Virus record (IMG/VR): IMGVR_UViG_3300028898_000252
Coordinates: 29,946 to 93,945 of that record
DNA length: 64,000 nt
Direction: 5' to 3' (one strand)
Source of the DNA: a virus
Lineage: Duplodnaviria > Heunggongvirae > Uroviricota > Caudoviricetes
The notes under the pieces were generated by a model. That model was not told the origin of the DNA. It worked only from the letters and a program-made list of their open reading frames with translations, and searched no databases. Both the position numbers and the translations under genes were made by a program. Positions 33,547 to 63,943 of this stretch are shown here, piece by piece; the first letter of the stretch is position 1; every line of letters begins with the position of its first letter.

Positions 33547-34182
33547 ATGAAAACCATAAAACTGAAAAACAATGAATTGATTCCTGAATACTATACAGGA
33601 ATTGTTGAATGGGAACCTGGAACAAAATGTTGGTTCAAAGAAGGAAAAAGACATAGAATAGATGGACCAGCAAACGAATACTTTGACGGATCAAAAGAAT
33701 GGTGGATTGAAGGAAAACTTCACAGAATAGATAGCCCCGCTGTTGAATATGCAGATGGAACAAAATGTTGGTTCAAAGAAGGAAAATATCATCGAACAGA
33801 TGGTCCTGCTGTTGAATATGCAGATGGAACAAAACAATGGTGGGTTGAAGGGAAACTTCATAGATTTGATGGTCCTGCTATTGAATGGGCAAATGGATCA
33901 AAATATTGGTATAAAGATGGATTACTTCACAGATTCGATGGTCCTGCTTGCGAATATAAAGATGGATTAAAAGAATGGTATGTTGATAATAAACTCTATT
34001 CCACTTTTGAATTGGAAATCTATGTCGAAAAACTTATTTTCCTCGGGAAAGAAAAAGGCAACCATAACCTGTGTTGGTTAAAGTTTTTAACAGAAAATCA
34101 AGGAATCAAAGAGTTCCCTATTATTTCAGGAATGGAAAAAAATTTAATATTTAAAGAAATTTTCGTTTACTTGGAAATATAA
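33547..34182 (+). CDS. MORN-like repeat paralog family protein (5 repeats)
   Basis: Tandem 23-aa repeats WFKEGK.HR.DGPA.EY.DGTK plus the C-terminal module IFLGKEKGNHNLCWLKFLTENQGIKEFPIISGME. Confidence 0.7.
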   Translation: MKTIKLKNNELIPEYYTGIVEWEPGTKCWFKEGKRHRIDGPANEYFDGSKEWWIEGKLHRIDSPAVEYADGTKCWFKEGKYHRTDGPAVEYADGTKQWWVEGKLHRFDGPAIEWANGSKYWYKDGLLHRFDGPACEYKDGLKEWYVDNKLYSTFELEIYVEKLIFLGKEKGNHNLCWLKFLTENQGIKEFPIISGMEKNLIFKEIFVYLEI

Positions 34183-34377
34183 AAAATGAAAACTTTCTTC
34201 GTTATAGTTGATGATAAACCAGATTCTCAAATACAAACAAAGAATGTGTTTGAAGGATATAAAGAAGTTTTAAAAAAAGAAACAAAAGGTAAAATTCAAC
34301 TTATTGAAAAATCTTATTTTTTGGTGTGGTCTAAACAAAAAATAAAATAACAAAAGGATATAAACAAAAAAACAAAA

Positions 34378-35046
34378 ATGACAAATGCGATGTTGGTGTT
34401 AAAAACAAATAATTCAAAACTTGGTGGTGTTGCCGCGACTTATAGTTCAATTGATTCTTCTTGCCCGACTAGTTGCGCTTTAAAAGATAATGGATGTTAT
34501 GCTCAACTTGGTTTTGTTGGAATTCATACATCAAAACTAAATAAAAAGAAATCAACTCCAAGAGAAGTTGCAAGAGAAGAAGCAAAACAAATTAAACAAG
34601 CTATTAAAGAAGAAAAGAATACAAAACCATTGCGGTTGCACGTTGCAGGAGATTGCCGCACAAACGAAGCAGCAGCCATATTAGCCGAGGCAACAAAAGA
34701 ATGGGGCTATCCAGTATGGACTTATACACACGCCTGGAAAGATGTTTCTCGTTCTAGTTGGGGCAATAAGGTTTCTGTTCTTGCCTCGGTTGACAACATA
34801 AAAGAAATAAAATCGGCAAGAAGAAAAGGTTATGCTCCTGCTATCATTGTTGATAAATTTTTATCAAAAAAAGCATATGAGTTTAATGGATTTAAATTAA
34901 TTCCTTGTCCAAATCAAACTCATGAAAATATAACTTGTGAAAAGTGTAAACTTTGTTGGAACGATAAAAAACTTAAAACTCTAAATGCTGTTATTGGATT
35001 CGAAGCTCATGGTGCAAAAAGAAAATCTCTGCCAGTGATAAAATGA
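34378..35046 (+). CDS. hypothetical protein with the N-terminal Cys motif SCPTSC...GCYA
   Basis: 222 aa embedded in the MORN array. Not a MORN paralog. Confidence 0.5.
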   Translation: MTNAMLVLKTNNSKLGGVAATYSSIDSSCPTSCALKDNGCYAQLGFVGIHTSKLNKKKSTPREVAREEAKQIKQAIKEEKNTKPLRLHVAGDCRTNEAAAILAEATKEWGYPVWTYTHAWKDVSRSSWGNKVSVLASVDNIKEIKSARRKGYAPAIIVDKFLSKKAYEFNGFKLIPCPNQTHENITCEKCKLCWNDKKLKTLNAVIGFEAHGAKRKSLPVIK

Positions 35047-35453
35047 AAACAAAAGAAGACACAATAAAGATTATAGAATCTTCGGATGGAACAAAACAAT
35101 GGTATAAAGAAGGAAAATGTCATCGAGAGGATGGACCCGCGATTGAATGGGCAGGAGGGGCGAAAGAATGGTATATTGGAGGAAAACGCCACAGAATAGA
35201 TGGACCAGCTTTTGAAAATCCAGACGGAACAAAAGAATGGTGGGTTGGTGGAAAAGAATACTCGGACACAATTTATGTAAGAAACAAAATTTTTCTTGGA
35301 AAAGAAAAAGGAAAGTTTGGGATTGAGTGGTTAAAGTTTTTAACAGAAACAGGAATTGAAGAATATCCTCTTATTCCTGGTATGAATTATGAATTTGTTC
35401 AAAGATATGACCTCCAATCATTTTTAACTACGCAGGAGAATGTTTTAAAATGA
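35043..35453 (+). CDS. MORN-like repeat paralog family protein
   Basis: Repeats WYKEGKCHREDGPAIEW and WYIGGKRHRIDGPAFEN plus the LKFLTETGIEEYPLIPGM module. ATGA overlap with the upstream gene. Confidence 0.7.
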   Translation: MKTKEDTIKIIESSDGTKQWYKEGKCHREDGPAIEWAGGAKEWYIGGKRHRIDGPAFENPDGTKEWWVGGKEYSDTIYVRNKIFLGKEKGKFGIEWLKFLTETGIEEYPLIPGMNYEFVQRYDLQSFLTTQENVLK

Positions 35454-35884
35454 AACATCTTAAACTAAAAGATAATGAAAAAATTCCCAAACATTTTACA
35501 GGAATTGTTGAATGGGCAAGTGGATTGAAAGAATGGTTTAAAAAAGGAAAACATCATCGACTTGATGGACCTGCAATTGAATGGGTAAATGGAGATAAAC
35601 AATGGCTTAAAGAAGGAAAAACTCATAGAGTAGACGGACCAGCTATTGAACTTTCAGGTGGATATAAAGAATGGTGGATTGATAATAAATCAATAAAAAA
35701 AGAAATCGATATTTCAAATAAAATTTTTCTTGGAAAAGAAAACGGAAAGTATAAGATTGAGTGGTTAAAGTTTCTAACAGAAACAGGAATTGAAGAATAT
35801 CCTCTTGTTCCTGGTATGCCTCCTTATCAATTTAGAATTTTTAAAGACATATCTCTCGACGAACTCTTAAAAGTAGGTGTTTGA
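35450..35884 (+). CDS. MORN-like repeat paralog family protein
   Basis: Same repeat and C-terminal module. ATGA overlap. Confidence 0.7.
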   Translation: MKHLKLKDNEKIPKHFTGIVEWASGLKEWFKKGKHHRLDGPAIEWVNGDKQWLKEGKTHRVDGPAIELSGGYKEWWIDNKSIKKEIDISNKIFLGKENGKYKIEWLKFLTETGIEEYPLVPGMPPYQFRIFKDISLDELLKVGV

Positions 35885-36495
35885 TGGAAACAATTGATCT
35901 ATGGACAAAAACCACACAATTTCCTAAAAACTTTACAGGAATTGTTAAACGTGAAAACTTTCTTGAGATTTATTATAAAAATGGAAGTATTCATCGTAAA
36001 GATGGCCCCGCTTATATATCAAAATATATGTACAATAATCTAAAAAATTTTACTTATATTTGGTATAAAAAAGGAAAAAAACATAGAATTGGTGGTCCAG
36101 CGGTTGAAATTTGGGATGGTTCAAAAGAATGGTGGGTTAATAATAAAAAACATAGAATAGCTGCTCCTGCGGTTGTTGGAGTAGATGGATATAGAGAATG
36201 GTGCATTAATGGAAAATGGCACAGAACAGATGGGCCAGCTATTGAATTTGAAAACGGAGATAAATATTGGTATTTAAATAATAAACTCTGTTTTGAAAAA
36301 ACGGACATACCTATTCTTTTAAAAAAGAATATGTTTCTCAATATGGAAAGAGGAAAATATGATTTGTTTTGGTTAAGGTTCTTAACAGAAGACCAAGGAA
36401 TAAAAGAATTTCCAATGATTCCTGGAATACGTGAATTCATGTTGTCTATGGACTCTGAATTAAAAGATTATTTTGATGAGTGTGGATGGGTATAA
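35881..36495 (+). CDS. MORN-like repeat paralog family protein
   Basis: Four repeats plus the LRFLTEDQGIKEFPMIPGI module. ATGA overlap. Confidence 0.7.
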   Translation: MMETIDLWTKTTQFPKNFTGIVKRENFLEIYYKNGSIHRKDGPAYISKYMYNNLKNFTYIWYKKGKKHRIGGPAVEIWDGSKEWWVNNKKHRIAAPAVVGVDGYREWCINGKWHRTDGPAIEFENGDKYWYLNNKLCFEKTDIPILLKKNMFLNMERGKYDLFWLRFLTEDQGIKEFPMIPGIREFMLSMDSELKDYFDECGWV

Positions 36496-37034
36496 ACATG
36501 GAAACAATAAAGATTTTATCAGGGACTCAACTTCCTAAAAACTTTACAGGGATTGTGGAGTATCCGTGTAATGTTAAGATTTATTATAAAAATGGAAGTA
36601 TTCATCGTAAAGATGGCCCTGCTTATACTCGAAATGAAATCGACCCATTTGGATACGATAGATATGTGAAATGTTGGTATAAAAACGGAAAACTTCATAG
36701 AATAGATGGTCCAGCTGTTGAACAATCCTACTTCAATTTAAAAGAATGGTATATTAATGGAAAACATCCAATAGACAGACCAGCCCAATCAAGATACGGA
36801 AGTTTTTATTGGTTTTATGAAAAAAGATATTGGCATATAAATGACTTAATTCATTTGTTTGATAAAGGAATTTTTCTTGGAGGAGAAAAAAGAAAATATG
36901 GAATTACCTGCTTTTTGTTTCTAACAGAACATAATGGAATTCGAGAATTTCCCATAATGGGCGGAATGAAACAAGAACTTCTTAATCTTTGGAAATTTGA
37001 TCTGGTTTTAAAACTAGAGGAGTATAAACTATAA
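36480..37034 (+). CDS. MORN-like repeat paralog family protein (divergent)
   Basis: Repeats YYKNGSIHRKDGPAY and WYKNGKLHRIDGPAVE plus the C-terminal EFPIMGGM module. Confidence 0.65.
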   Translation: MWMGINMETIKILSGTQLPKNFTGIVEYPCNVKIYYKNGSIHRKDGPAYTRNEIDPFGYDRYVKCWYKNGKLHRIDGPAVEQSYFNLKEWYINGKHPIDRPAQSRYGSFYWFYEKRYWHINDLIHLFDKGIFLGGEKRKYGITCFLFLTEHNGIREFPIMGGMKQELLNLWKFDLVLKLEEYKL

Positions 37035-37038
37035 CATC

Positions 37039-37509
37039 ATGACAAACCTAAATGTAGTAGTAAGAAAACGTGGTAGACCACCTGGAAGTAAAAACAAGAA
37101 AACCGCGGGCGATGTGAAACCTAGTCCCGCGGTTATTGCCTCGGCGGTCGACTCAGGAATAATTCCAAAAAAGCGAGGGAGACCACCGAAGAATCCCCAA
37201 GCAGCCGCGGCACCAAAACCAGAATTTATCCCACAAGAGATTCCAGTTTTAGAATCTAAATTGGTTTCGATTATAAATAAACCAAAAGAAGAGACCAAGG
37301 TTCAAGAACCGAAAAGTTATAAACAGTTTGAAGTTGGAGATAGAGTTAAAAAAATAACAACAGGAGATGTTGGATATGTTAAAGTACACAAGCCAGGTAC
37401 CAGGTATGTTTACGTTAATTGGGGTGGGGATTATATGGATTTTGTTGCGGCTGACTTACTAGAACTAGTAAACATACCAGCTTCAAAAAGGCAAAAAAAG
37501 AATGAGTGA
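37039..37509 (+). CDS. AT-hook DNA-binding protein
   Basis: Two AT-hooks, KRGRPPGSKNKK and KRGRPPKNPQ, then a C-terminal SH3/KOW-like segment. Confidence 0.65.
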   Translation: MTNLNVVVRKRGRPPGSKNKKTAGDVKPSPAVIASAVDSGIIPKKRGRPPKNPQAAAAPKPEFIPQEIPVLESKLVSIINKPKEETKVQEPKSYKQFEVGDRVKKITTGDVGYVKVHKPGTRYVYVNWGGDYMDFVAADLLELVNIPASKRQKKNE

Positions 37510-37515
37510 TTGTGA

Positions 37516-37953
37516 ATGGAAACTTTAAAACTAAAACTTAACGAATATATTCCTGACAACTTTACAGGAATTGTTGAAGCTGAAAATGGAGCCATAGTAT
37601 GGCTTAAAAATGGAAAAAAACATCGAGAAAACGGGCCAGCAGCTGAGTGGGCAAATGGAAACAAATATTGGTATATTGAAGGAAAACGCCACAGAATAGA
37701 TGGTCCAGCAGTTGAACATCCAGATGGATATAAAGAATGGTGACTCGACGGAATTCGCTATACAAACAATAACTTTTCCACCGAAGGAAAGATTTTTTTA
37801 GGAACTGAGATCGGGAAATATGGACTTGAATGGTTAAAGTTCATGACAGAAAATAAAATCGAAGAATTTCCTATTATTCCAGGTCGGGAATTAAAAATAG
37901 TTCATTCTTTTACGGTTGAAGAATATAAAACGTTTATAGAAAGCAACAAATGA
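37516..37953 (+). pseudogene. MORN-like paralog interrupted by in-frame TGA at a conserved Trp (37741-37743)
   Basis: ...GYKEW-TGA-LDGIRY... Intact paralogs read KEWW at this position, so a TGG to TGA change is likely. The frame continues to the C-terminal module and a TGA at 37951-37953 that overlaps the next start. Confidence 0.6.
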
Positions 37954-38294
37954 AAACTTTAAAACTAAACTTTGGAGATGTATTTCCCGACAATTATACG
38001 GGAATTGTTGAAGTTTTTAGCGGAACAAAAGAATGGTGGGTTGAAGGTAAACTTCATAGAACGGACGGACCAGCAATTGAATGGGGCGAAAACATAACAT
38101 CTTGTTATATAGATGAATTTGTGTACACAGAGGAAATCTTAGATTCTTTAATTAAAGAATCGATATTTCTTGGAATTGAAAAAGGCAAGCACGGTCTTGA
38201 GTGGATTAAGCTTTTAACAGAAAATGGAGGAATTTGTGAAATCCCTAATTTTAAAAAACTGAAAGAATCTGATATAAAGAAAGGTATAATATAA
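37950..38294 (+). CDS. MORN-like repeat paralog family protein (single repeat)
   Basis: WWVEGKLHRTDGPAIEW plus the LEWIKLLTENGGICEIP module. Confidence 0.6.
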   Translation: MKTLKLNFGDVFPDNYTGIVEVFSGTKEWWVEGKLHRTDGPAIEWGENITSCYIDEFVYTEEILDSLIKESIFLGIEKGKHGLEWIKLLTENGGICEIPNFKKLKESDIKKGII

Positions 38295-38295
38295 A

Positions 38296-38877
38296 ATGAT
38301 AAAAAAAACAATGTCTTTGTTTCTTATTGCCGCGATTGGATGCTCCTCTATTCAGCGGCCTCAAACAAGCTCTCTTGAATATCCAGTGGCTACGATTCCA
38401 GCAACACATGAATCAGAATTTAATTCTGTTTTGGATGCCTCGGTTGTTCCGATATCCGATGCCTCAACTTTGTTCTCTTTACCAGAAGGAAGCAGAATTA
38501 TTGCGGTGAGAGAAGGTGGCACCGCGCCGTATAGCGGCGTTCTGTTTAATAACGTTGCCGCCGCGGGTCTTGAAGTTGAAATAAGAGCTCAGCAAAGAAC
38601 ATGTCAAGTTAATTCTCTTTATGAAAGACAACAACTTGCAGCGACTGCAATAAGAGATATTGAATCCTTAAGAAACACAATTTCGACACAGCAGCGTACA
38701 TATTCACTTTTAATTGAAAACAGAAACAGAACTATCTTTCAATATGAAACTTATTCGAATTCTCTTAGAAGACAAACAGAGGGAGAAGTTGGAAGAATTG
38801 TTGGGTTTACTATTGGTGGGATAGTTTTGGGGGCAATCGTGACAGGTTTAATTGTTGGTTTCTTTCCAAGGAACTAA
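38296..38877 (+). CDS. lipoprotein with a C-terminal TM anchor
   Basis: Signal and lipobox LIAAIGCSS. C-terminal IVGFTIGGIVLGAIVTGLIVGFF. Confidence 0.55.
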   Translation: MIKKTMSLFLIAAIGCSSIQRPQTSSLEYPVATIPATHESEFNSVLDASVVPISDASTLFSLPEGSRIIAVREGGTAPYSGVLFNNVAAAGLEVEIRAQQRTCQVNSLYERQQLAATAIRDIESLRNTISTQQRTYSLLIENRNRTIFQYETYSNSLRRQTEGEVGRIVGFTIGGIVLGAIVTGLIVGFFPRN

Positions 38878-38919
38878 AATTTGCAATCTAATTATTTTTG
38901 AATTTAAAAGAGGTATTAT

Positions 38920-39201
38920 ATGGATATTAAAGTTCCTTTATTAAAACAAAGTGATGGAAGACCATCTGCCAGTTTTACAATGGTTTTTTTGGCGTTTAAT
39001 GTTTGTCTATTATGGTTGTTTCTTTCTATAATAGAAGGACTTGGACCAATAAAAGTCAGAGCTTTCGATTCAGGTCAAGCAATGGCGTTTTTAGCACCTT
39101 TGCTTGGATTATATTTTGGAAGGCGCTATACCGATCCAAAAACAGCTTTATCAAATGAAGTTGCGGATCAAAAAGATCCTGAACCAGCGAAGTCTGAATG
39201 A
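38920..39201 (+). CDS. small membrane protein
   Basis: 93 aa with a TM segment FTMVFLAFNVCLLWLFLSII. Confidence 0.45.
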   Translation: MDIKVPLLKQSDGRPSASFTMVFLAFNVCLLWLFLSIIEGLGPIKVRAFDSGQAMAFLAPLLGLYFGRRYTDPKTALSNEVADQKDPEPAKSE

Positions 39202-39250
39202 TAAGTTACTACATATTAAGAGAGAGATAGATTTATAACGGAAATAAAAA

Positions 39251-40927: not shown

Positions 40928-41171
40928 AAAAATACTTGAAATTGTAAAATGTATACAAGATCCAACACGGAACTAAAATTTAACTCTAAAGCAGATAAAG
41001 AAAGTTTCGTTGTTGGATTTTTGTCATTGTATCACGACAAATCTTGTTGTCTTGAACTTGTCAATAAATCCAACACGACTTTAGAAATTTGTTTTTTTGG
41101 TTCCTTAGATAAAAATTTATTACAAGAGATAGAAGAATTATATGGCAGTGTACTAGTATTTAATACAGACA

Positions 41172-41987
41172 ATGCCAATAAACATCTCTAATCTTCAGAA
41201 ACTATTTGAACTTGCTGCGGAAGAGGCTGCTCAACAACAACCTCCTGCAAATAGTTCTCCTGCGCCTGTTGCCGCGACTGAAGCTACGCCACAGGCAACT
41301 CAACCAGCACAAGTTAATCCACAAAGTCAAACAGGTGGACAAGCTATTTCAGTTGAAAAAATTATTGATCATCTTAATGGAATCAGAAGCGGCAAAAGCT
41401 TTAATGATCCATTAATTTTTACAGCAATAACAAATATATTTAATGGACTTTCTTCTTCCGAGAAAGCTGTTCTGGATAAAGCTTTGTCTCAACTCGATAA
41501 ATCAATTGAACAAATTACAAAACAACAATCCCCACCAAATCCAAACAACCAAGAAATAAAAACTCCAGCAGTTCAACCACAGTTTGGAAATCAAACAATG
41601 TCTTCCGCGGCAACTCCATTACAAGGTCCTCAACAAGCACAGCAAATGGCTTCAAATTCTCCAGTTGTTGGAATGATGGGTGGATTACTTGCAGAAGAAT
41701 CTATATCTCTCAAAAACCTTCATGAATCGGTTAATCGACCAAATAAAACAACAGTTGTTATAAATGGAGAAGAAGTACCTTTCGGATCAGAAACTCATAA
41801 AGGACAACTTGTTATTGTTCTTCAAGGATTGGAAGATCTTAAAAACTGCTATCGAAAAGGTTCAAGTACCCGCTACACACTCGCTGGGGCCTGTCAGAAA
41901 GTCAGAAAAATTCTGAAAGACACTTCCGTTCGTGGTGCCGTCGATGGTGCCGAGCACAGCGATCCCAATTCAGAAATTGTTTCTTGA
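41172..41987 (+). CDS. hypothetical Q/P-rich protein
   Basis: 271 aa. Low-complexity N-terminal half. GC-rich 3' end. Confidence 0.5.
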   Translation: MPINISNLQKLFELAAEEAAQQQPPANSSPAPVAATEATPQATQPAQVNPQSQTGGQAISVEKIIDHLNGIRSGKSFNDPLIFTAITNIFNGLSSSEKAVLDKALSQLDKSIEQITKQQSPPNPNNQEIKTPAVQPQFGNQTMSSAATPLQGPQQAQQMASNSPVVGMMGGLLAEESISLKNLHESVNRPNKTTVVINGEEVPFGSETHKGQLVIVLQGLEDLKNCYRKGSSTRYTLAGACQKVRKILKDTSVRGAVDGAEHSDPNSEIVS

Positions 41988-42024
41988 GCCATACAGAGCT
42001 GTTTAGGTGCTCTGTCAACACCCC

Positions 42025-42053
42025 TTGACTAAGGTTCGTTGTGGCGATATACT
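42025..42053 (+). promoter_or_regulatory. sigma70-type promoter upstream of the gene at 42094
   Basis: -35 TTGACT (42025-42030), 17-nt spacer, -10 TATACT (42048-42053). A GTCAAcaccccTTGAC inverted repeat overlaps the -35. Confidence 0.55.
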
Positions 42054-42093
42054 AACCCCGTTCACGAAAGTTAATCAGGTAGTATAAAACAAA

Positions 42094-42711: not shown

Positions 42712-42720
42712 GAGTGATTT

Positions 42721-43806: not shown

Positions 43807-43858
43807 ATTATTTATACGTTTAATAATAACTATAGTTTTAATTTAATAAAATGTTAGG

Positions 43859-44791: not shown

Positions 44792-44820
44792 AACTTTCGC
44801 TTATTAACTAGAATTAAAAT

Positions 44821-52102: not shown

Positions 52103-52108
52103 CTATAA

Positions 52109-52375: not shown

Positions 52376-52478
52376 TCAAAGTAATCATTATTTTCAAGCA
52401 TTGCTTAAAATAACAAGAGGGACTAACTTAGAGATAAGTGGTCCCTCTTCTCTTTTGCGGACTCTTGAGGTAAAAAAC

Positions 52479-53081: not shown

Positions 53082-53102
53082 GTTACTCATTGTCTTCAAA
53101 CA

Positions 53103-54056
53103 ATGAATCTTGAAGACTTCCTGAAAAACTTAAATGTTAATAATGACTTCTATCGAAGTATAGATTTTCTCTCAAAACCAAAATATGAAGAACTAAAACT
53201 TTCGTTAGCAAGTAATAAAAGTTTTTCTGATTATTCAAGAGAATTTAATTGGTTTACAATATATTCTTCTATCAACATAGAGAAATATAAATCCGAAACA
53301 AAAACATTTGTTCCTGCAAGAAAATATGGAAATAGACTCTATACCTGGAGACTAAACCAAATGGACTATTACAGGGGCGATAAATATTCAGAGCCGATAA
53401 AAATTGGTTCTGAATTTTTTTTGTTTTATAATGAATACGGAAAGCCAACAAGAGCTCTACTCGAAAATAAACTTATTGAAAATGTAGGTTATAACTCTTT
53501 TAAACTTACAGACGAAAATCAATATTCTCAAACATTAACAGAACAAGATATTGAAAATGCAAAAAATGGATACTTTCAATATTTAGAAATTTTTGATTCA
53601 AAACCTTTTAAAGCAAAAGAACTTGAAAATTTTAATTTTATCTTTTATGGAAATTCTCCAATAATAGAAAAAAACGAGATTATTTTTTGGGCAGAAAGAA
53701 ATGGATTTGTAAATCATTCAAAGAAACCAAAACAGAACAAAAAGAATGTTCTTGTTTGTTTATCAGAATTTCCTTATTCAAGAAAAGCCTTGTTGAAAAC
53801 AAAAATTCCGCAAGGTTTAAAACATAACACGGCGAGAATTTCTTATAAAGATTTCATTAACATTGCTTATAACATTGCTTATAAACAAGATTTTGTTTTC
53901 TCCTGGAATTCTTTAAAACGAGAAAGAGTTAAACTTTTAACCGAGTATAAATCTTTTTTTGAGGATGAAAAGAATTTTAATAAAAATCAAAGGCGGCTAA
54001 CAAAACAAATTGTTGAAGAACTTGAAATTCAAATTGAAGAATTAAACTTGTTTTAA
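53103..54056 (+). CDS. hypothetical protein
   Basis: 317-aa ORF. Overlaps the first minus-strand MORN gene by 15 nt. Confidence 0.5.
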   Translation: MNLEDFLKNLNVNNDFYRSIDFLSKPKYEELKLSLASNKSFSDYSREFNWFTIYSSINIEKYKSETKTFVPARKYGNRLYTWRLNQMDYYRGDKYSEPIKIGSEFFLFYNEYGKPTRALLENKLIENVGYNSFKLTDENQYSQTLTEQDIENAKNGYFQYLEIFDSKPFKAKELENFNFIFYGNSPIIEKNEIIFWAERNGFVNHSKKPKQNKKNVLVCLSEFPYSRKALLKTKIPQGLKHNTARISYKDFINIAYNIAYKQDFVFSWNSLKRERVKLLTEYKSFFEDEKNFNKNQRRLTKQIVEELEIQIEELNLF

Positions 54057-54470
54057 AAAAGTAAACAGTATTTCAAAGTTTTTATATTGTTCCATTCCAG
54101 AAATAATAGGAAACTCTTGGATTCCTCTTTCTGTTAAGAACCTTATCCAATCAAGATCATATTTGCCTTTTTCTTTGCCAAGAAAAATACCAGTATTTAA
54201 CCAGTGTTCCAAATCTTTATAACTTAGATATACACTGTCTATATACCAAAGTTTGGTACCACCAGGCATTTCAATCGCTGGACCATCTATTCGGTGCCGT
54301 TTGTCTTCAATCCACCATTCTTTATCTCCATCTGAATGTTCAACAGCTGGTCCATCTTCTCGATGAATTTTACCCTCTTTATACCAAGCTTTAGTTCCAT
54401 TATAAAATTCAATAACACCAGTATAGTTTTTAGGAATCTCGGCAGATGAATTTAGTTTCAAAACTTCCAT
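54042..54470 (-). CDS. MORN-like repeat paralog family protein
   Basis: Repeats WYKEGKIHREDGPAVEH and WWIEDKRHRIDGPAIEM plus LDWIRFLTERGIQEFPIISGME. Confidence 0.7.
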   Translation of the reverse strand: MEVLKLNSSAEIPKNYTGVIEFYNGTKAWYKEGKIHREDGPAVEHSDGDKEWWIEDKRHRIDGPAIEMPGGTKLWYIDSVYLSYKDLEHWLNTGIFLGKEKGKYDLDWIRFLTERGIQEFPIISGMEQYKNFEILFTFLKQV

Positions 54471-54480
54471 TTATAGCTTT

Positions 54481-54837
54481 TTAAGCTCCAAGTTTTTCGA
54501 AAATAACTTTAAATTCTTCGTCCTCTCTCATTCCAGGAATAATAGGAAACTCTTGGATTCCTCTTTCTGTTAAGAACTTTAACCAATCAAGGTTATGGAT
54601 GCCTTTTTCTATCTTTAAAAAAAGAGTATTTTCTATTAATTGATTTAATGTAAATGGATGATACATGAAATCATCTATATACCAATACTTGTCTCTATTT
54701 CGATATTCACAAGCAGGGCCATCTATTCGGTGAAAATTTCCATCTTTATACCAATACTTAATTCCTGATTCATATTCTGCAATCCCTGTATAGTTCCTAG
54801 GGATACATTCATTACCTTTTAATTTAATCGTTTCCAT
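54481..54837 (-). CDS. MORN-like repeat paralog family protein
   Basis: Same repeat and C-terminal module. Confidence 0.7.
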   Translation of the reverse strand: METIKLKGNECIPRNYTGIAEYESGIKYWYKDGNFHRIDGPACEYRNRDKYWYIDDFMYHPFTLNQLIENTLFLKIEKGIHNLDWLKFLTERGIQEFPIIPGMREDEEFKVIFEKLGA

Positions 54838-54840
54838 CTT

Positions 54841-55003
54841 TATTTTTCCTTTTTCTTCTTATTTTATATCAAAAACCCTGCAATTTCCAAACACATGAAT
54901 TCAAAAAAGGCAATTTGCGGAATTTCCCTAGATATTTTATACTTTCTCCTAGATGGAAAGTCAAAAATTTTTTCAACATTTCCCATCTTTTTTGGAGAAG
55001 AAT
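54841..55003. repeat. conserved upstream intergenic cassette, copy A
   Basis: ttttatatcaaaaaccctgcaatt...gaatttccctagatattttatactttctcctagatggaaagtc...aagaattcaagtt. Near-identical to 57808-58009. Shares its first half with 56196-56384. Confidence 0.55.
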
Positions 55004-55381
55004 TCAAGTTTTGAATAAATCTATTAAAAACAGTTTTAATTCTTGAGAAGCATCTCTAGATTCTTCCATTCCTTTAATATAAGGAAACTCTATAATCCCT
55101 TCATTTTCTGTTAAAAACTTTAGCCAATCAAGGTTATGGATGCCTTTTTCTTTTCCAAGAAATATATATTTTTTATAATATCTTTCTAAAGTTGTAACAT
55201 TGTATGGCATACTGCTAATCCACCATTCTTTATTTCCGTTATCTATTTCAACAGCTGGACCATCTTCTCGATGCCATTTTCTTTCTTTGTACCAAAATTT
55301 AGCTTTCATTGCTTTATGTTCAATAATTCCTGTAAAGTTTTCAGGAACTTCTGTAAACGAATTCACTTCTATTATGTTCAT
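55004..55381 (-). CDS. MORN-like repeat paralog family protein
   Basis: Same repeat and C-terminal module. Confidence 0.7.
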   Translation of the reverse strand: MNIIEVNSFTEVPENFTGIIEHKAMKAKFWYKERKWHREDGPAVEIDNGNKEWWISSMPYNVTTLERYYKKYIFLGKEKGIHNLDWLKFLTENEGIIEFPYIKGMEESRDASQELKLFLIDLFKT

Positions 55382-55731
55382 GGTGAAATGATCTCATCCA
55401 TTCTTGTTTTCAGTAAAGGACTCACATCCTCCATCCCAGGAATAACAGGAAACTCTTTTATTCCTTGGTCTTTTGTCAAAAACTTTAACCAATATAGGTT
55501 ATATTTGCCCTTTTTGGTTTCAAGAAAAAGGGCAGAAATAAACATTTCTTCCAAATCATATATTTCATATCTAACTCCATCAATAAACCATTCTTTTGAA
55601 CCAACTCTCCATTCAATCGCAGGTCCATCTTCTCGATGCCTTTTTCCATTTTTAAACCATTCTTTGTCTCCATAATTGGTTGGAATCATTCCTGTAAAGT
55701 TTTGTCCAACTGTTAACCCTATTATGCTCAT
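55378..55731 (-). CDS. MORN-like repeat paralog family protein
   Basis: Same repeat and C-terminal module. 4-nt overlaps with neighbours. Confidence 0.7.
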   Translation of the reverse strand: MSIIGLTVGQNFTGMIPTNYGDKEWFKNGKRHREDGPAIEWRVGSKEWFIDGVRYEIYDLEEMFISALFLETKKGKYNLYWLKFLTKDQGIKEFPVIPGMEDVSPLLKTRMDEIISP

Positions 55732-56195
55732 AACCCAATTTCCTTCATCTCTTTTTCTGTTAAAAATTCTTTAAGCAAAGAAAAGAACAGTCTCTCTGTT
55801 TCCATTCCTTTAATATAAGGAAACTCTTGAATTCCTTGATTTACTGTCAAAAACTTTAGCCAATATAAATCATATTTTCCTTTTTCTTTTCCAAGAAAGA
55901 TCGAATCTTTAAAAAGCATTTTTAAAATCATGGAGTGATAGAAAGATCCTTCGAGATGCCATTCTTTTGTTCCGTTTGCGTATTCACAAGCGGGACCATC
56001 TAATCTATGACATTTTCCATCAATCCACCATTCTTTATCTCCATTAGCCTGTTCAATGGCTGGCCCATCTACTCTATGGGGAAACCCATCCTGAAACCAT
56101 ATTTTTGTTCCTAGTGGATATTCAACAATCCCTGTAAAGTTTTCAGGGCACAACTCATCAACTTTTAATTTAAGCGTTTCTGTTTTCGTTTTCAT
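55728..56195 (-). CDS. MORN-like repeat paralog family protein
   Basis: Three repeats plus YWLKFLTVNQGIQEFPYIKGME. Confidence 0.7.
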   Translation of the reverse strand: MKTKTETLKLKVDELCPENFTGIVEYPLGTKIWFQDGFPHRVDGPAIEQANGDKEWWIDGKCHRLDGPACEYANGTKEWHLEGSFYHSMILKMLFKDSIFLGKEKGKYDLYWLKFLTVNQGIQEFPYIKGMETERLFFSLLKEFLTEKEMKEIGL

Positions 56196-56384
56196 TACCT
56201 TTCTTTCTTTCCTTATTTTATATCAAAAACCCTGTAATTCTCAAACACACGAATTCAAGTTTTTGAATTCTTCGGTTTTCCAGGGTTTTTGATTTATACC
56301 CCTGGGATTTTGGATAAAACTCATGTTCATTTTCTCGCATGTTTTGTGTTCAAGAATTCAAGTTTAAGAGAAATGAGGTTTTCT
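56196..56384. repeat. conserved upstream intergenic cassette, copy B (variant)
   Basis: ATATCAAAAACCCTG ... CAGGGTTTTTGATTTAT 15-bp inverted repeat. GAATTCAAGTTTTTGAATTC palindrome. Confidence 0.5.
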
Positions 56385-56768
56385 CTAGATCTCAAGTGAA
56401 AGTTTACGAAAAGCTTTCTTAAAAAGAGGATCGGTTTCCATTCCTGGAATAATAGGATACTCTTCAACTCCATCTTCTGTTAGAAACTTTATCCATCTAA
56501 GGTCATACTTTCCTTTTTCGATCCCAAGAAAAATTGATGAATTGATTGTGCTACATAATATATTACCAAAATAGTAAACTCCATCAACCCACCAATATCT
56601 TTCTCCATTTCCATATTCTACAGCTGGACATTCTACAGCTGGTCCATCTATTCTGTGAGCCCTTCCTTCTTTATACCAATACTTTGACCGTGTACTGGTA
56701 TAATACACAATTCCCGTATAGTTTTTAGGAATCATTTCACCTGGATTATTCATGTTTATAATTTCCAT
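56385..56768 (-). CDS. MORN-like repeat paralog family protein
   Basis: Repeat with the internal micro-duplication GPAVECPAVEYG, plus the C-terminal module. Confidence 0.65.
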   Translation of the reverse strand: MEIINMNNPGEMIPKNYTGIVYYTSTRSKYWYKEGRAHRIDGPAVECPAVEYGNGERYWWVDGVYYFGNILCSTINSSIFLGIEKGKYDLRWIKFLTEDGVEEYPIIPGMETDPLFKKAFRKLSLEI

Positions 56769-56885
56769 TTAAAACCCTTATAACGCCTTTCTTTTCCCAA
56801 CGAGGGAATGTTCGTTTTTTTGATTTTAATGCCCTGCTGAGCCGTATAAATAAAGTGAATAAATGTCTGGGAATTTCCTTGATGA

Positions 56886-57452
56886 TCATAAATCAGTCGC
56901 GGCAACATCTAAAAAAACTTCTTCTCCAACCAAAGAATTCAATTCTTGAATTGATCTTAAAATATTATTATCCTCTCTCATTCCTGGAATGAGAGGATAT
57001 TCTTTAATTCCTCCTTCTGTTAAAAACTTTAACCAATATAGATCATATCTGCCTTTCTCTTTCCCAATATACAAAGAATTGAATACAAGAAAATTTAGTA
57101 CACTATAACCAACTAAGTCGCCATTAACAAACCATTCTTTATATCCATTTATCCCAACAATAGCAGGTCCATCCGTTCTATGAAGTTTTCCTTTAATATA
57201 CCAATATTTGTCTCCATTTATTCTTTCGATAGCTGGACCGTCTTCTCGGTGAAGTTTATCTTCTTTATACCAGTTTTTACTTCCATTTTCCCATTCAATT
57301 ATTCCTGTATAGTTGTCGGGAATATATCCACTAAGTTTCAGTTTCAAAACTTCCATGACTGTTTTCATTTCTCTTTCATGTAGAACAAATCTTCTTAATC
57401 CAATCCCAAAGCTCTTTATCAGTTTCCATTCCAGGAATAATAGGAAACTCAA
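56886..57452 (-). CDS. MORN-like repeat paralog family protein (true start probably near 57368, MKTVMEV)
   Basis: Three repeats plus YWLKFLTEGGIKEYPLIPGM. The N-terminal 28 aa in the track are probably extension. Confidence 0.65.
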   Translation of the reverse strand: MSFLLFLEWKLIKSFGIGLRRFVLHEREMKTVMEVLKLKLSGYIPDNYTGIIEWENGSKNWYKEDKLHREDGPAIERINGDKYWYIKGKLHRTDGPAIVGINGYKEWFVNGDLVGYSVLNFLVFNSLYIGKEKGRYDLYWLKFLTEGGIKEYPLIPGMREDNNILRSIQELNSLVGEEVFLDVAATDL

Positions 57453-57807
57453 TTATCCCACCCACGCCTAAAACATAAATCCATTCTAAACCATACTTGC
57501 CTATCTCTTTCTTAAGAAAGAGATTTCCATCCAGCATCTCTTTATCGTATTCTTTTCCATCAACACCCCAAATAACAAACCCAGTTTTCCATTCAACGGC
57601 AGGTCCATCTATTCGGTGTAATAATCCATCAACCCACCATTCTTTAGCCCACCATTCTTTTTCTCTATCTTCATATTCCACAGCTGGGTTGTTAATTCTA
57701 TGTCTTTTTCCATCTTTAAACCAATATTTATATCCCGAGTTAAATATAACAATTCCTGTATAATCACTAGGAACTTGGCCCATGTTTTCCAGCTTTATTA
57801 TTTCCAT
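57376..57807 (-). CDS. MORN-like repeat paralog family protein
   Basis: Same repeat and C-terminal module. Confidence 0.7.
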   Translation of the reverse strand: MEIIKLENMGQVPSDYTGIVIFNSGYKYWFKDGKRHRINNPAVEYEDREKEWWAKEWWVDGLLHRIDGPAVEWKTGFVIWGVDGKEYDKEMLDGNLFLKKEIGKYGLEWIYVLGVGGIIEFPIIPGMETDKELWDWIKKICST

Positions 57808-58009
57808 TTGTTTCTCTTTCCATTGATTGGTTTTATATCAAAAACCCTGCAATTCCGAAACACATGAATTCAAAAACATCGTTTTATGGAATTTCCCTAG
57901 ATATTTTATACTTTCTCCTAGATGGAAAGTCAAAATTTTTTTCAATATTTCCCATCTTTTTTGGAAAAGAATTCAAGTTGAAGTTTAATCGCGGCAACAC
58001 CCACAAAAC
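57808..58009. repeat. conserved upstream intergenic cassette, copy C
   Basis: Near-identical to 54841-55003. Confidence 0.55.
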
Positions 58010-58438
58010 TCATAACAAAGAAATCAATCTCTTAATCTCTTCATAATCTTTCATCCCTAAAACAATAGGAAACTCTTCTATTCCTTCTTCTGTTAAAAAC
58101 TTAACCCATTCAATACCATATTTGCCTTTCTCTAATCCCATATAAGCTGCATACTTTGTATAAAAATCAAAATCGATTAAATCAAAACATCGAATATCCT
58201 CAACCCACCACTCTTTTGTTCCATTTGTTCGTTCAATTGCTGGGCCATCTATCCTATGACATTTTCCATCGGCCCACCATTCTTTTGTTCCATCCCAAAC
58301 CTCAATAGCTGGTCCATCTTCTCGATGGAGTTTACCCTCTTTATACCAAATTTTAGTCCCAATTTCATACTCAATTATTCCTGTATAATTCCCCGAAACA
58401 GCAACCCCAGCTTTTAACTTTAAAACCTCCATAGACAT
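58010..58438 (-). CDS. MORN-like repeat paralog family protein
   Basis: Three repeats plus IEWVKFLTEEGIEEFPIVLGM. Confidence 0.7.
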   Translation of the reverse strand: MSMEVLKLKAGVAVSGNYTGIIEYEIGTKIWYKEGKLHREDGPAIEVWDGTKEWWADGKCHRIDGPAIERTNGTKEWWVEDIRCFDLIDFDFYTKYAAYMGLEKGKYGIEWVKFLTEEGIEEFPIVLGMKDYEEIKRLISLL

Positions 58439-58454
58439 TTATCCTTCCACAACC

Positions 58455-58985
58455 TCAATCCATAACCCCTAATTCTTCCAATATCCCTTTGCAAATTTCT
58501 TTCTCTTCCATTCCTTTAATATAAGGAAACTCTTCAATCCCATTCTTATCCGTTAAAAACTTCATCCACTTAATACCATACTTTCCTATCTCATACCCAA
58601 AGTATAAAGAAGTGTCAAAAAGCATTCTTAAGCTAATTGCAGAAACCTCCTTGCTCTCAAGATAAAATGCTGTATATCCCGAGTTCACTTCAATAGCATA
58701 TCCATAAGGATTATGCAACTTTCCTTCTTTATACCATCTCTTTTCTCTATAGGTTATATCAAAAGTTTCAAATGCTGGGCCGCCTTCTCGATGAAGTAAT
58801 CCTTTCTTATACCAATATTTTCCCGCAACACCACCACCCATTTTCTCCGAAATAATCATTCCCGTGAAACCCATCCTCACACCACTTATATTGGGTTTTA
58901 ACCTTATAACCCTGTGTTTTGGCATCTTTTTTATTTGTCCTTTCTTAACAAATAAACCCACTCCACCAATACTCACCTTAGCCAC
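58455..58985 (-). CDS. MORN-like repeat paralog family protein (start probably near 58925)
   Basis: Repeats plus IKWMKFLTDKNGIEEFPYIKGME. The N-terminal 20 aa are likely extension. Confidence 0.65.
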   Translation of the reverse strand: MAKVSIGGVGLFVKKGQIKKMPKHRVIRLKPNISGVRMGFTGMIISEKMGGGVAGKYWYKKGLLHREGGPAFETFDITYREKRWYKEGKLHNPYGYAIEVNSGYTAFYLESKEVSAISLRMLFDTSLYFGYEIGKYGIKWMKFLTDKNGIEEFPYIKGMEEKEICKGILEELGVMD

Positions 58986-58989
58986 TCTA

Positions 58990-59110
58990 TCCGCACCGTC
59001 AACCCCTCCCTCTCTCTTTCCTACTTTAATTCCACTTTATTCCTCCTTCCACCTTCCCCCACTCCACAACCCCGCTACCCTCCACTTGCTGAATTAATTT
59101 CACATTGACC
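58990..59110 (+). repeat. polypyrimidine (C/T-rich) tract of about 120 nt
   Basis: ccccaccaatactcacc ... ccctccctctctctttcctactttaattccactttattcctccttccaccttccccc. A strong strand-composition anomaly inside the largest intergenic gap of the MORN array. Confidence 0.6.
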
Positions 59111-59277
59111 TTGCTCTAACTTATCGAAACTCTTGAACTATTCGTTGCGGTAGTTGACGCCCAACTGTTGCCCGTGTGTGTTGGTTCCCAAGACCAAAAA
59201 TTGAAACTAAAAGAAATTAAATGAAATGTTTGAGAAAGTAAAATTTTGAAGAAAAAGTTGAAAGAGTGAAATGTATC

Positions 59278-59477
59278 AAACCATGTGAAGAATTTAACAA
59301 GAATTTAATAGAAAATTAATCAAATTAATGAAGGTTTAACCATATGAGTTTTAATAGAAAATTAATCAAATTAATGAAGGTTTAACCAAATAGAAACCAT
59401 GTGAAGAATTTAACAAGAATTTAATAGAAAATTAATCAAATTAATGAAGGTTTAACCAAATAGAAACCAAATAGAAA
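59278..59477. repeat. tandem direct repeats (about 36-70 nt units, 3 copies)
   Basis: aatagaaaattaatcaaattaatgaaggtttaacca occurs three times. The longer unit aaaccatgtgaagaatttaacaagaattt...ccaaatagaaa occurs twice. ccaaatagaaa is reiterated. Confidence 0.75.
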
Positions 59478-59515
59478 GAAGTTTCAACCATGATATATCT
59501 TAACCAAGAAGAGAG

Positions 59516-60013
59516 TCAAGAGTTATAGGAATGGATTAACAACTTCTTAAAGTTTTTGTCTTGGTTCATACCTGGAATAAGAGGAAATTCTTCTATTCCT
59601 TCTTCTGTTAAGAACCTTAACCAAGGTAGGTTATGGTTGCCTTTTTCTGTTCCGAGATAAACAGCAAATTGAATTAAGTAAGAAAGTATTGCAGGAGCAT
59701 AATACATTCCTTCGATCCACCATTCTTTTTCTCCGTTTGGTAATTCAATAGCAGGACCATCAACTCTATGTCGTTTTCCCTCTTTATACCAATGTTTTTC
59801 TCCATTTGGGTATTCAATAGCTGGACCATCCTCTCGATGAGGTTTTCCTTCCTTGTACCAATATTTTGTTCCATCTGCGAATTCAACTGCTGGAGCATTC
59901 AATCTATGAAACGATCCTTCTTTATACCATTGTTTTGTTCCGTGTTCCCATTCAACAATTCCAGTAAACTTATTGGGAATATTTTCTTCATCTTTAAGTT
60001 TTATGGTATTCAT
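59516..60013 (-). CDS. MORN-like repeat paralog family protein (4 repeats)
   Basis: Same repeat and C-terminal module. Confidence 0.7.
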   Translation of the reverse strand: MNTIKLKDEENIPNKFTGIVEWEHGTKQWYKEGSFHRLNAPAVEFADGTKYWYKEGKPHREDGPAIEYPNGEKHWYKEGKRHRVDGPAIELPNGEKEWWIEGMYYAPAILSYLIQFAVYLGTEKGNHNLPWLRFLTEEGIEEFPLIPGMNQDKNFKKLLIHSYNS

Positions 60014-60405
60014 GGTATTGTTGCCCCGACTATTTGATTACGAAGACTTTTAAACAACTCCTGAAATGTTTTTAATTCCTCCATTCCAGGAACTATAGGA
60101 AACTCTTGGATTCCTTCTTCTTCTGTTAAGAACCTTAACCAATCAAGATCATATTTTCCTTTTTCGGTTCCAAGAAAGATTGAGAATTCAATAAGATTTT
60201 TTAATAGTCTATGGCCATAAAGAATTCCTTCGATCCACCATATTTTTGATCCATCAAAGTATTCGTTTGCTGGACCATCTATTCTATGTCTTTTTCCTTC
60301 TTTGAACCAACATTTAGATCCATTGCTACGGATAGCAATTCCTGTATACTTATCTGGAACTTCCGTAAATGAGATTACTTTTATTATGGTTTGTTGTTGA
60401 TTCAT
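60010..60405 (-). CDS. MORN-like repeat paralog family protein
   Basis: Same repeat and C-terminal module. ATGA overlap. Confidence 0.7.
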   Translation of the reverse strand: MNQQQTIIKVISFTEVPDKYTGIAIRSNGSKCWFKEGKRHRIDGPANEYFDGSKIWWIEGILYGHRLLKNLIEFSIFLGTEKGKYDLDWLRFLTEEEGIQEFPIVPGMEELKTFQELFKSLRNQIVGATIP

Positions 60406-60803
60406 GGTGATGTTGCCTCGATTATTTTGGCTTGTTTAAGCATCTCGACCGAGGCTTTAAACCACGGATCTGTTTCCATTCCAGGTATAATAGGAAACTT
60501 TTCGAATCCTTCTTCTGTCAAAAATGTTAGCCAATATAGGTTATAGTCGTCTTTTTCAGTTTTAATATAAATCCCGTCCTTTATCATCGTAAAAACACAC
60601 AACCAGGTATATTCTTCTCCATCAATCCACCATTCTTTATGACCAGTTGCCCATTCTCTTGCAGGTCCATCTTCTCGGTGGAGTAATCCATCTCTGTAAT
60701 AAAATTTAGATTGATTTTCGTTAATCGCAATACCAGTAAAGTTTTCTGGTATTTTTTCTCCAACTTTTAGTTGGAAAATGTTTCGCTGTTTTATTTGACT
60801 CAT
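60402..60803 (-). CDS. MORN-like repeat paralog family protein
   Basis: Same repeat and C-terminal module. ATGA overlap. Confidence 0.7.
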   Translation of the reverse strand: MSQIKQRNIFQLKVGEKIPENFTGIAINENQSKFYYRDGLLHREDGPAREWATGHKEWWIDGEEYTWLCVFTMIKDGIYIKTEKDDYNLYWLTFLTEEGFEKFPIIPGMETDPWFKASVEMLKQAKIIEATSP

Positions 60804-61246
60804 ATTGAGGTTGCCCCCGCCAATTGATCAATTTTAAAAAATAATTCATTATATTCTTGATCGATTTCCATTCCTGGAATAACCGCGAATTCTTCAATTC
60901 CTGTTTCTGTTAAGAATTTAAACCAATATAAATCATATTTTCCTTTTTCTTTCCTAAGATATATTGCGGTTTCAAAAAGATATTCTAGGTAATAAACATT
61001 ATAAACACTTTTATTAATCCACCATTCTTTATGTCCACTGGAATATTCAATTGCTGGTCCATCTACTCTATGAAGTTTATCTTCAATCCACCATTCTTTT
61101 GTTCCGCCTAGATATTCCACAGCTGGTCCATCTATTCTGTGAAGTTTGTCATTTTTGTACCAATACTTATTTCCATTTTCCGATTCAATAATTCCTGTAA
61201 AATTGCTTGGGGCAATTTCATGTTTTTTCAGTTTTATTGTTTTCAT
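60800..61246 (-). CDS. MORN-like repeat paralog family protein
   Basis: Same repeat and C-terminal module. Confidence 0.7.
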   Translation of the reverse strand: MKTIKLKKHEIAPSNFTGIIESENGNKYWYKNDKLHRIDGPAVEYLGGTKEWWIEDKLHRVDGPAIEYSSGHKEWWINKSVYNVYYLEYLFETAIYLRKEKGKYDLYWFKFLTETGIEEFAVIPGMEIDQEYNELFFKIDQLAGATSI

Positions 61247-61248
61247 TT

Positions 61249-61680
61249 TTATATTCCTAAAGTTTCGAATAGTTGTTTGAAACTTTCATCTTTATCCATC
61301 CCTGGAATGATCGGAAACTCCTTAATTCCTTGGGTTTCTGATAAAAACTTTAACCAATAAAGGTTATATTTTCCTTTTTCTTTCCCGAGAAAAATAGATG
61401 TTTTAATCAAGTGAGAAAGCATTTCAGGAGCATAACATTCATCTTGAATGTACCATTCGTTAACTCCATTTGCATATTCAATTGCTGGACCATCTAATCT
61501 ATGAATTAACCCTTCTACATACCAACAATTAGTTTTATTGTCATTATATTCAGCAGCTGGGCCATTTTCTCTATGAAGCAATCCTTCTTTATACCAAAAC
61601 TTGGTTCCATCTACATGTTCTACAATTCCTGTATAATTTGATGGGGGCTCTTGATTTTCTTTTAGTTTTAAGGTATTCAT
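61249..61680 (-). CDS. MORN-like repeat paralog family protein
   Basis: Same repeat and C-terminal module. Confidence 0.7.
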   Translation of the reverse strand: MNTLKLKENQEPPSNYTGIVEHVDGTKFWYKEGLLHRENGPAAEYNDNKTNCWYVEGLIHRLDGPAIEYANGVNEWYIQDECYAPEMLSHLIKTSIFLGKEKGKYNLYWLKFLSETQGIKEFPIIPGMDKDESFKQLFETLGI

Positions 61681-62126
61681 GGTATTGGTGCCGTTTTTGT
61701 TTCTTTATCAAGACTTTCAAACGAGATTTTAAGCTCTTCATATTGCCACATACCAGGAATAATTGGGAATTCATAAATTTCATCTTCTGTTAAGAATCTT
61801 AGCCATTCAAGATTGAACTTACTTTTTTCTTTTCCAAGATAAACAGATGTTTGAATGAGCTCGTCTAGCAACGTACAGTTAAAAATATTATCATCGATCC
61901 ACCATTCTTTTGATCCATCACTCCACTCAATCGCTGGGCCGTCTATTCGGTGCCGTTTATCTTCTATATACCAAAGTTTTGTGCCGTTTAACCATTCAAT
62001 AGCAGGACCATCAGTTCGATGATATTTTCCTTCTTTAAGAAATACTTTGTTTCCGTCTTCGTATTCCACAATACCTGTAAAGTTTTTTGGAATTTGTCTT
62101 CTGGAAGTTATTTTTAGCATATTCAT
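61677..62126 (-). CDS. MORN-like repeat paralog family protein
   Basis: Same repeat and C-terminal module. ATGA overlap. Confidence 0.7.
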   Translation of the reverse strand: MNMLKITSRRQIPKNFTGIVEYEDGNKVFLKEGKYHRTDGPAIEWLNGTKLWYIEDKRHRIDGPAIEWSDGSKEWWIDDNIFNCTLLDELIQTSVYLGKEKSKFNLEWLRFLTEDEIYEFPIIPGMWQYEELKISFESLDKETKTAPIP

Positions 62127-62148
62127 GCTGTTGCTGCCCCGAATGTTT

Positions 62149-62616
62149 TTATTGAGCTGAAGACCTTATAATGGACTGAATGGAATCAGGGAGAGAGGAA
62201 ACAAACTTATTGATATACCTTAAAGAATATGGATAACCTGGGAGGATAGGGTGTTCAGTAATTCCTTGTTCTGTTAGAAACAAAAGCCAGGGAATGTTAT
62301 ATTTTCCGTTTGGCTCGGCAGAAAGAAAGATAGAATTGGATAACAAGATTTCAATAGTTTTGGAGCCATGATAGTGGTTATCGTCTATATACCAAAATTT
62401 GGCTCCATGTTGATATTCAATTGCTGGGCCATCGATTCTATGAAGTAAGCCTTCTTTATACCAAAACTTATCTCCATTATCCCATTCACAAGCAGGACCA
62501 TCTATTCGATGTTGTTTTCCTTCTTTATACCAATATTTGGTTCCATTTTCCCATTCAATAATTCCTGTATAGTATTCTGGAATAGGTTCTTCATTTTTCA
62601 GTTTTATCGTATTCAT
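62149..62616 (-). CDS. MORN-like repeat paralog family protein
   Basis: Same repeat and C-terminal module. Confidence 0.7.
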   Translation of the reverse strand: MNTIKLKNEEPIPEYYTGIIEWENGTKYWYKEGKQHRIDGPACEWDNGDKFWYKEGLLHRIDGPAIEYQHGAKFWYIDDNHYHGSKTIEILLSNSIFLSAEPNGKYNIPWLLFLTEQGITEHPILPGYPYSLRYINKFVSSLPDSIQSIIRSSAQ

Positions 62617-63116
62617 GTTATTGGTGTCGTTTTGATTTCATCAAGATTTTGAAATAGTTCCCTAAACCATAAGGCGTTGTGCATTCCAGGAATAATTGGA
62701 AATTCTTCAATTCTTTGTTCTGTTAGGAACTTTAACCAACATAAGTTATATTTGCCGTTTTCTTTTCCAAGAAAAAGGAAATAGTTGATAAATTTTTCTA
62801 GATCCGACTGGTTATAGAATTTTCCTTCAATCCACCATTCTTTTATCCCATCATTCCATTCGACTGCTGAACCATCTATTCTATGAAGTTTTCCTTTTTC
62901 ATACCAGAGTTTTGATCCATTTGCGTATTCAATAGCTGGACCATCTATTCTGTGAAGTTTTCCTTCTTTATACCAGAATTTTGCTCCGTCTGCCCATTCA
63001 ACAGCTGGTCCATCTTCTCTGTGGAGTAATCCATCTTTATACCAATATTTGGTTCCATTTTCCCATTCAACAATTCCTGTATATTTTTCACTATTTTTTG
63101 GTTTCAAAATTTTCAT
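62613..63116 (-). CDS. MORN-like repeat paralog family protein (4-5 repeats)
   Basis: Same repeat and C-terminal module. ATGA overlap. Confidence 0.7.
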   Translation of the reverse strand: MKILKPKNSEKYTGIVEWENGTKYWYKDGLLHREDGPAVEWADGAKFWYKEGKLHRIDGPAIEYANGSKLWYEKGKLHRIDGSAVEWNDGIKEWWIEGKFYNQSDLEKFINYFLFLGKENGKYNLCWLKFLTEQRIEEFPIIPGMHNALWFRELFQNLDEIKTTPIT

Positions 63117-63119
63117 GCT

Positions 63120-63563
63120 TTATGTCCCTAAAGTTTTTAGGAGGAGTGGTTTAAAATTTTCATCTTTTTCCATTCCTGGTATGATTGGAAACTCTTCGAC
63201 CCCATTTTCTGATAAAAATTTTAACCAATATAAGTTATATTTGCCCTTTTCGGTTCCTAAATAAATCATATTATCTATATGATGTTTTAGAATTTTAGCA
63301 CTCATGATATTTCCATCAATATGCCATCGATTTTTATACTTGTTTTGATATTCAACTGCTGGGCCATCGAGTCGATGCCACAATCCATTTTTGTACCAAC
63401 ATTTGGTTCCATCTGAATATTCAACCGCAGGACCATCTTCTCGGTGAATCATTCCTTTTTTTCTCCATTCCTTGGTTCCATTTTCCCGTTCAACAATTCC
63501 TGTATAGTATTCTGGAATAGGTTCTTCGTTTTTCAGTTTTAATGTTGTTTGTTGTTGGTTCAT
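63120..63563 (-). CDS. MORN-like repeat paralog family protein
   Basis: Same repeat and C-terminal module. Confidence 0.7.
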   Translation of the reverse strand: MNQQQTTLKLKNEEPIPEYYTGIVERENGTKEWRKKGMIHREDGPAVEYSDGTKCWYKNGLWHRLDGPAVEYQNKYKNRWHIDGNIMSAKILKHHIDNMIYLGTEKGKYNLYWLKFLSENGVEEFPIIPGMEKDENFKPLLLKTLGT

Positions 63564-63943
63564 GTTATTGATGCCGCGATCGTTTTTTGGTTAAGGGATT
63601 CAAACAAAGTTTTAAATTCTTTGCATTCTTCCATTCCTGGAACAATGGGAAACTCTTGGATTCCTTGATTTTCTGTTAGGAACCTTAAACAACACAGGTT
63701 ATGGTTGCCTTTTTCGGCTCCAAGATAAATCGCTTTTTGAATTAGTTCAAAAAGTTTTTTGACATTATTTTCTTTTCCTTCAATCCACCATTGTTTATAT
63801 CCATCTGAAAATTCACAAGCAGGACCATCTAATCTATGAAGTTTTCCTTCTTTATACCAATATTTTGGTCCATTTTCCCATTCGATAATTCCTGTATAGT
63901 GTTCAGGAACATGTTCTTTTAGTTTTAGTTTTATTGTTTTCAT
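63560..63943 (-). CDS. MORN-like repeat paralog family protein
   Basis: Same repeat and C-terminal module. ATGA overlap. The array probably continues beyond the window end. Confidence 0.7.
   Translation of the reverse strand: MKTIKLKLKEHVPEHYTGIIEWENGPKYWYKEGKLHRLDGPACEFSDGYKQWWIEGKENNVKKLFELIQKAIYLGAEKGNHNLCCLRFLTENQGIQEFPIVPGMEECKEFKTLFESLNQKTIAASIT

Follow-up and report, generated by a model that had tools for sequence, protein, structure and literature searches.

A lineage-specific family of at least 31 MORN-like repeat proteins in an uncultivated jumbo phage

MORN repeat proteins (PF02493), which include TbMORN1 (6t4r), MORN4 (6jle), junctophilin-2 (7rxe) and the radial-spoke proteins RSP1/RSP10, are among the described systems closest to the family of small phage proteins analysed in this report. 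Both have a 23-residue period and a W-x2-G-K-x-H core, and our structural models predict that the phage proteins, like MORN proteins, stack their β-hairpin repeats in one elongated antiparallel sheet with a C-terminal helix cap. The main differences are that the second half of the family motif is HRxDGPAxE rather than GxG, that the context is a bacteriophage, and that a C-terminal α/β domain is added. The MORN likeness proposed in an earlier reading of this DNA without database searches (hereafter the sequence-only reading) holds at the level of the fold, in fold searches with an AlphaFold2 (AF2) model. The Pfam MORN model gave no match at E ≤ 0.1, the PDB yielded no sequence match, and Foldseek against the PDB returned E ≥ 0.1.

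The family shares its exact repeat type with DUF6745 (PF20530) and with the “LHRxDGPA” repeat proteins that are widespread in phages, giant viruses and bacteria; the repeat also occurs in Celeribacter phage P12053L, in mimivirus-like viruses and in jumbo phage Atu_ph07, which has several paralogs. The repeat region is matched by at least 4,080 proteins, phage and giant-virus proteins included, most of which are annotated as PF20530. In BFVD, the matches—giant-virus “MORN repeat-containing” proteins, Celeribacter phage P12053L and at least eight Atu_ph07 proteins—span the repeat part alone. Only positions ~59–103 of the 206 in the DUF6745 profile are matched, and the five-repeat member alone exceeds the Pfam cut-off. 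Generic DUF6745-type proteins end in a short WYLNGKxLTEEEF helix, have other N termini, and are devoid of the N-terminal cap (N-cap) and C-terminal domain (C-domain) of the family. The repeat is therefore common and Pfam labelled, but the label comes without a function: none is assigned to DUF6745, and the literature searched makes no mention of it.

The C-domain is rare, previously undescribed and restricted to a group of related phage contigs. An exhaustive profile search found 52 relatives among 1.84 billion (1.84e9) representative proteins, all 49–230 aa long, and the eight that we read in sequence have the same layout of N-cap, repeats and C-domain as the family. There was no true match in 185,579 species-representative bacterial and archaeal genomes, and none in Pfam, PHROGs, NCBIfam, PADLOC or PDB, in agreement with the initial impression that this module lies outside known families.

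A multigene family in two opposed arrays

An uncultivated jumbo phage carries a lineage-specific multigene family with no fewer than 31 members. In the window (the whole 64,000-nt stretch that was analysed), repeat and C-domain HMMs applied to the six-frame translation recovered exactly the 27 open reading frames previously listed, seven on the plus strand (33547–38294) and 20 on the minus strand (54042–63943), together covering 18.7% of the window. On a contig whose sequence matches the end of the window exactly, the minus array continues with two more members, and two further members lie ~134–154 kb away in the same genome, which gives the total of at least 31. An identical member is present on contigs of up to 390,884 bp. 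The window sequence recurs in independent contigs from several samples and is thus not an assembly artefact. Far from most copies being degraded, the C-domain is in frame in 26 of the 27 paralogs, which bears out the description of a real, hyper-expanded family. The 4-nt ATGA overlaps between genes were correctly noted and occur at 10 junctions, and for four members listed as starting at TTG or GTG, an internal ATG is a plausible start (35884, 36498, 57356 and 58925). A GA[TP]I-type tail is found in 17 of the 171 family proteins examined.

The plus array begins with the five-repeat member (33547..34182; 211 aa), in which the HMMs delineate an N-cap, five repeats, a half repeat and the C-domain, and whose DUF6745 score of 33 bits in Pfam comes from the repeat part only. 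Two repeats are present at 35043..35453 (136 aa), where a short N-cap is without the IPxNFTGI motif, and at 35450..35884 (144 aa), which has an ATGA overlap with the preceding gene. The member at 35881..36495 has four repeats, two of them degenerate, encodes 203 aa from its likely ATG start at 35884, and is 94% identical to its ortholog P0136; that at 36480..37034 (likely ATG start 36498) has two repeats plus a degenerate one and a divergent C-domain. At 37516..37949 lies a split member, with two repeats (37516–37743) ended by a single TGA (37741–37743) that stands in place of a TGG of the EWW motif, and an intact in-frame C-domain downstream (37744–37949). This is the one pseudogene that had been spotted, and it is either a recent nonsense pseudogene or a polymorphism. 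The last plus-strand member (37950..38294; 114 aa) has one repeat and a C-domain with a divergent end.

Read downwards from the end of the window, the minus array starts with a one-repeat member (63560..63943; 127 aa), upstream of which the two additional members lie past base 64000. Members with two repeats follow at 63120..63563 (147 aa), 62149..62616 (155 aa), 61677..62126 (149 aa; KTAPIP tail), 61249..61680 (143 aa; identical to P0001) and 60800..61246 (148 aa; modelled with AF2), members with three at 62613..63116 (167 aa; TTPIT tail) and 59516..60013 (165 aa), and members with one at 60402..60803 (133 aa) and 60010..60405 (131 aa; GATIP tail). The member at 58455..58985 has two degenerate repeats and a likely ATG start at 58925 that gives 156 aa. 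Two repeats are also present at 58010..58438 (142 aa), at 57376..57807 (143 aa; KEWWAKEWW micro-duplication and divergent C-domain), at 56886..57452, whose TTG frame overlaps the upstream gene and whose likely ATG start is at 57356–57368, and at 55728..56195 (155 aa). Single-repeat members are found at 56385..56768 (127 aa), where the reported 4-aa micro-duplication PAVECPAVE (DGPAVECPAVEY) is real, and at 55378..55731 (117 aa), 55004..55381 (125 aa) and 54481..54837 (118 aa). The array closes with a two-repeat member (54042..54470; 142 aa) that is 89% identical to its ortholog P0010, with changes clustering in repeat 2. Three upstream cassettes are interspersed on the same strand. Copy 1 (54862..55010; ~150 nt), which precedes 54481..54837, has a conserved 3′ block, TTGGAA-N16-TGATATAAA, followed by an AG-rich ribosome-binding site, and we infer from its sequence that this block may be a promoter-like element. 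All three cassettes are real, but their supposed near identity applies to copy 3 (57831..57979; 92% identical to copy 1) and not to copy 2 (56216..56364), whose 3′ block is the same but which is only 63% identical to copy 1.

Architecture and predicted structure

From N to C terminus, family proteins consist of four parts: an N-cap (MKTIKLK..IPxNFTGIxE), one to five repeats, a half repeat followed by a helix, and the C-domain. The repeat is a 23-aa MORN-like β-hairpin with 17 conserved and six highly variable positions (1, 8, 11, 18, 19 and 22), as determined by per-position entropy over 257 repeats. According to the translations and the repeat HMM, the 27 genes encode one full repeat in eight cases, two in 15, three in two, four in one and five in one, while the terminal half repeat (EWWIxG) is present in every protein. 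The C-domain is the conserved unit that the sequence-only reading had recognised, although it measures ~70 aa rather than ~55, and it has an α-β-β-β-α organisation (helix, three strands, helix). AF2 models of the two-repeat member at 60800..61246 (pLDDT 94.9, pTM 0.84) and of the five-repeat member (pLDDT 95.1, pTM 0.83) have the same caps and C-domain, and the sheet grows with the number of repeats. The N-cap is predicted to be structural rather than a signal, because it is modelled within the sheet, as integral strands with pLDDT 91–95, and because the same motif is internal in a 787-aa protein encoded elsewhere in the window. Family proteins are hydrophilic and mildly acidic (median pI 5.7, negative GRAVY), with no signal peptide, transmembrane segment or hydrophobic stretch found, and are probably soluble and intracellular.

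The 787-aa protein (19188..21551, minus strand) does contain the repeat, as had been suggested, with two weak HMM matches (best domain E 2.8e-6). It has three isolated MORN-like units and no C-domain, and one unit displays the family N-cap motif internally (EEIPDGFTGI, one repeat, then a generic LTKNEF cap). It has no match in Pfam, PHROGs or the phage database, and it is not a family member.

Turnover by recombination under purifying selection

Repeat number is altered by unequal recombination between repeats: a clean 69-nt loss, of exactly one repeat, separates strains with 99.95% identity. Gene-conversion-like exchange occurs mainly in the repeats, whose dN and dS are both ~2.4–2.9-fold higher than those of the C-domain. 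In two related phages, flanking single-copy proteins have a median identity of ~83%, whereas array members peak at 47–63% (one at 73%); their arrays, with 22 and 17 copies, show no collinearity, and no array member has a one-to-one ortholog. Birth-and-death turnover thus erases one-to-one orthology among related phages, and diverged phages nonetheless retain the array at a common genomic position. Recombination-driven change in repeat and copy number, which had been anticipated, is therefore seen directly, but the wider picture of a rapidly diversifying family needs qualification. Within the genome, the C-domains are on average 40% and at most 59% identical, with no recent duplicates, and dN/dS over four strain-level ortholog pairs (~128 substitutions in all) is 0.41. 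The former indicates that the paralogs are old, which makes an “arms race” just one reading of their divergence, and the latter indicates purifying selection rather than gene-wide positive selection. Together with the 26 of 27 intact copies, this dN/dS value indicates that the genes are functional.

Possible functions and parallels in other viruses

The neighbourhood of the family is non-structural. In the window, it includes rIIA, Macro, ADP-ribosylglycohydrolase, SPFH, a sigma factor, AAA+ proteins and MoxR/VWA; the dispersed copies adjoin DHFR, ThyA and DnaE; and no head, tail or protease genes are near any of the three loci. By analogy, our preferred, still tentative, reading is that these proteins form a cytoplasmic repertoire of binders or adaptors, all with one docking domain in common, that serves counter-defence or the takeover of the host. 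The repeat sheet would be the target-recognition surface and, since sheet length and variable positions differ among paralogs, every paralog would have its own protein target. From the invariant C-domain, all paralogs would derive one common property, which might be self-assembly or the ability to dock to one and the same partner from phage or host, although conservation of this domain could instead reflect folding or stability. Acting in the infected cytoplasm, such a repertoire might neutralise, sequester or redirect diverse host proteins, e.g., defence effectors or toxins.

We consider it unlikely that the proteins are instead packaged in the capsid and enter the cell along with the DNA, so as to disarm the host at once, like T4 internal proteins and phiKZ-like inner-body paralogs, for which anti-defence roles have been proposed. 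Jumbo phages do have paralogous internal-protein families, the proteins are small and mildly acidic, and their conserved N terminus (MKT...TGI[VI]E) has an I-x-E motif resembling T4 prohead-protease sites. However, the models place this segment in the sheet, the IPxxFTGI motif cannot be an N-terminal signal in the 787-aa protein, and the loci are devoid of head, tail and protease genes. Bacteria also possess β-hairpin repeat immunity proteins (YwqK/MORN_2), and small, soluble, variable proteins such as these could each block a different toxin, of the host or of a competitor, at its active site, with the C-domain as a partnerless stabilising cap. This seems rather improbable to us, as there is no MORN_2/YwqK match at E ≤ 0.1 and no PADLOC match, and generic repeat proteins are already capped by their short helix, so that an extra conserved three-strand-plus-helix unit suggests an added function.

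A structural role, in which the C-domain would form homo- or hetero-oligomers and the MORN-like sheets of interchangeable paralogs would construct or anchor an assembly inside the cell or a membrane-associated scaffold, could account for the strong conservation of the C-domain and for the SPFH/Band7 membrane-scaffold gene 1 kb upstream of the plus array. We regard it as quite improbable: interchangeable subunits need no ~30 copies at ~40% identity with hypervariable positions, lipid-binding and membrane features are lacking, and copy content differs between related phages. One nonsense mutation, degenerate repeats in several members and assembly breaks within the arrays might point to selfishly amplified or decaying, functionless duplicates, but intact, tightly packed frames with translational-coupling overlaps, the dN/dS value and the retained genomic position make this very hard to sustain. 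The same low probability applies to secreted host-surface binders, a role that the sequence-only reading had entertained and that is disfavoured by hydrophilic, mildly acidic proteins with no signal peptide or transmembrane segment and by the non-structural neighbours.

Compared with T4 IPI–III and the phiKZ inner-body paralogs, the family is likewise small, variable and phage specific with a conserved N terminus, but here this N terminus is predicted to be part of the fold, and the loci are outside any morphogenesis module. The poxvirus ankyrin/PRANC-F-box host-range factors and the ANK, MORN and FNIP families of giant viruses also combine varying numbers of N-terminal protein-binding repeats with a short conserved C-terminal domain, and the repeat families of large eukaryotic viruses likewise comprise tens of clustered paralogs whose copy content varies between related viruses; MORN-repeat multigene families are present in giant viruses (PMC5753266). 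This likeness is an analogy of design, not homology: the repeat differs from that of the poxvirus factors, the C-domain has no sequence or fold relation to F-box/PRANC, and the bacterial host is without a ubiquitin system of that kind. Among jumbo phages, a survey of 224 by Iyer et al. 2021 (PMC7824862) leaves MORN-type families unmentioned and calls the ~35 zinc-ribbon copies of Bacillus phage G unprecedented. Those zinc ribbons differ both in fold and in presumed function (DNA binding or transcription), but they represent an expansion of comparable scale within one jumbo phage genome.

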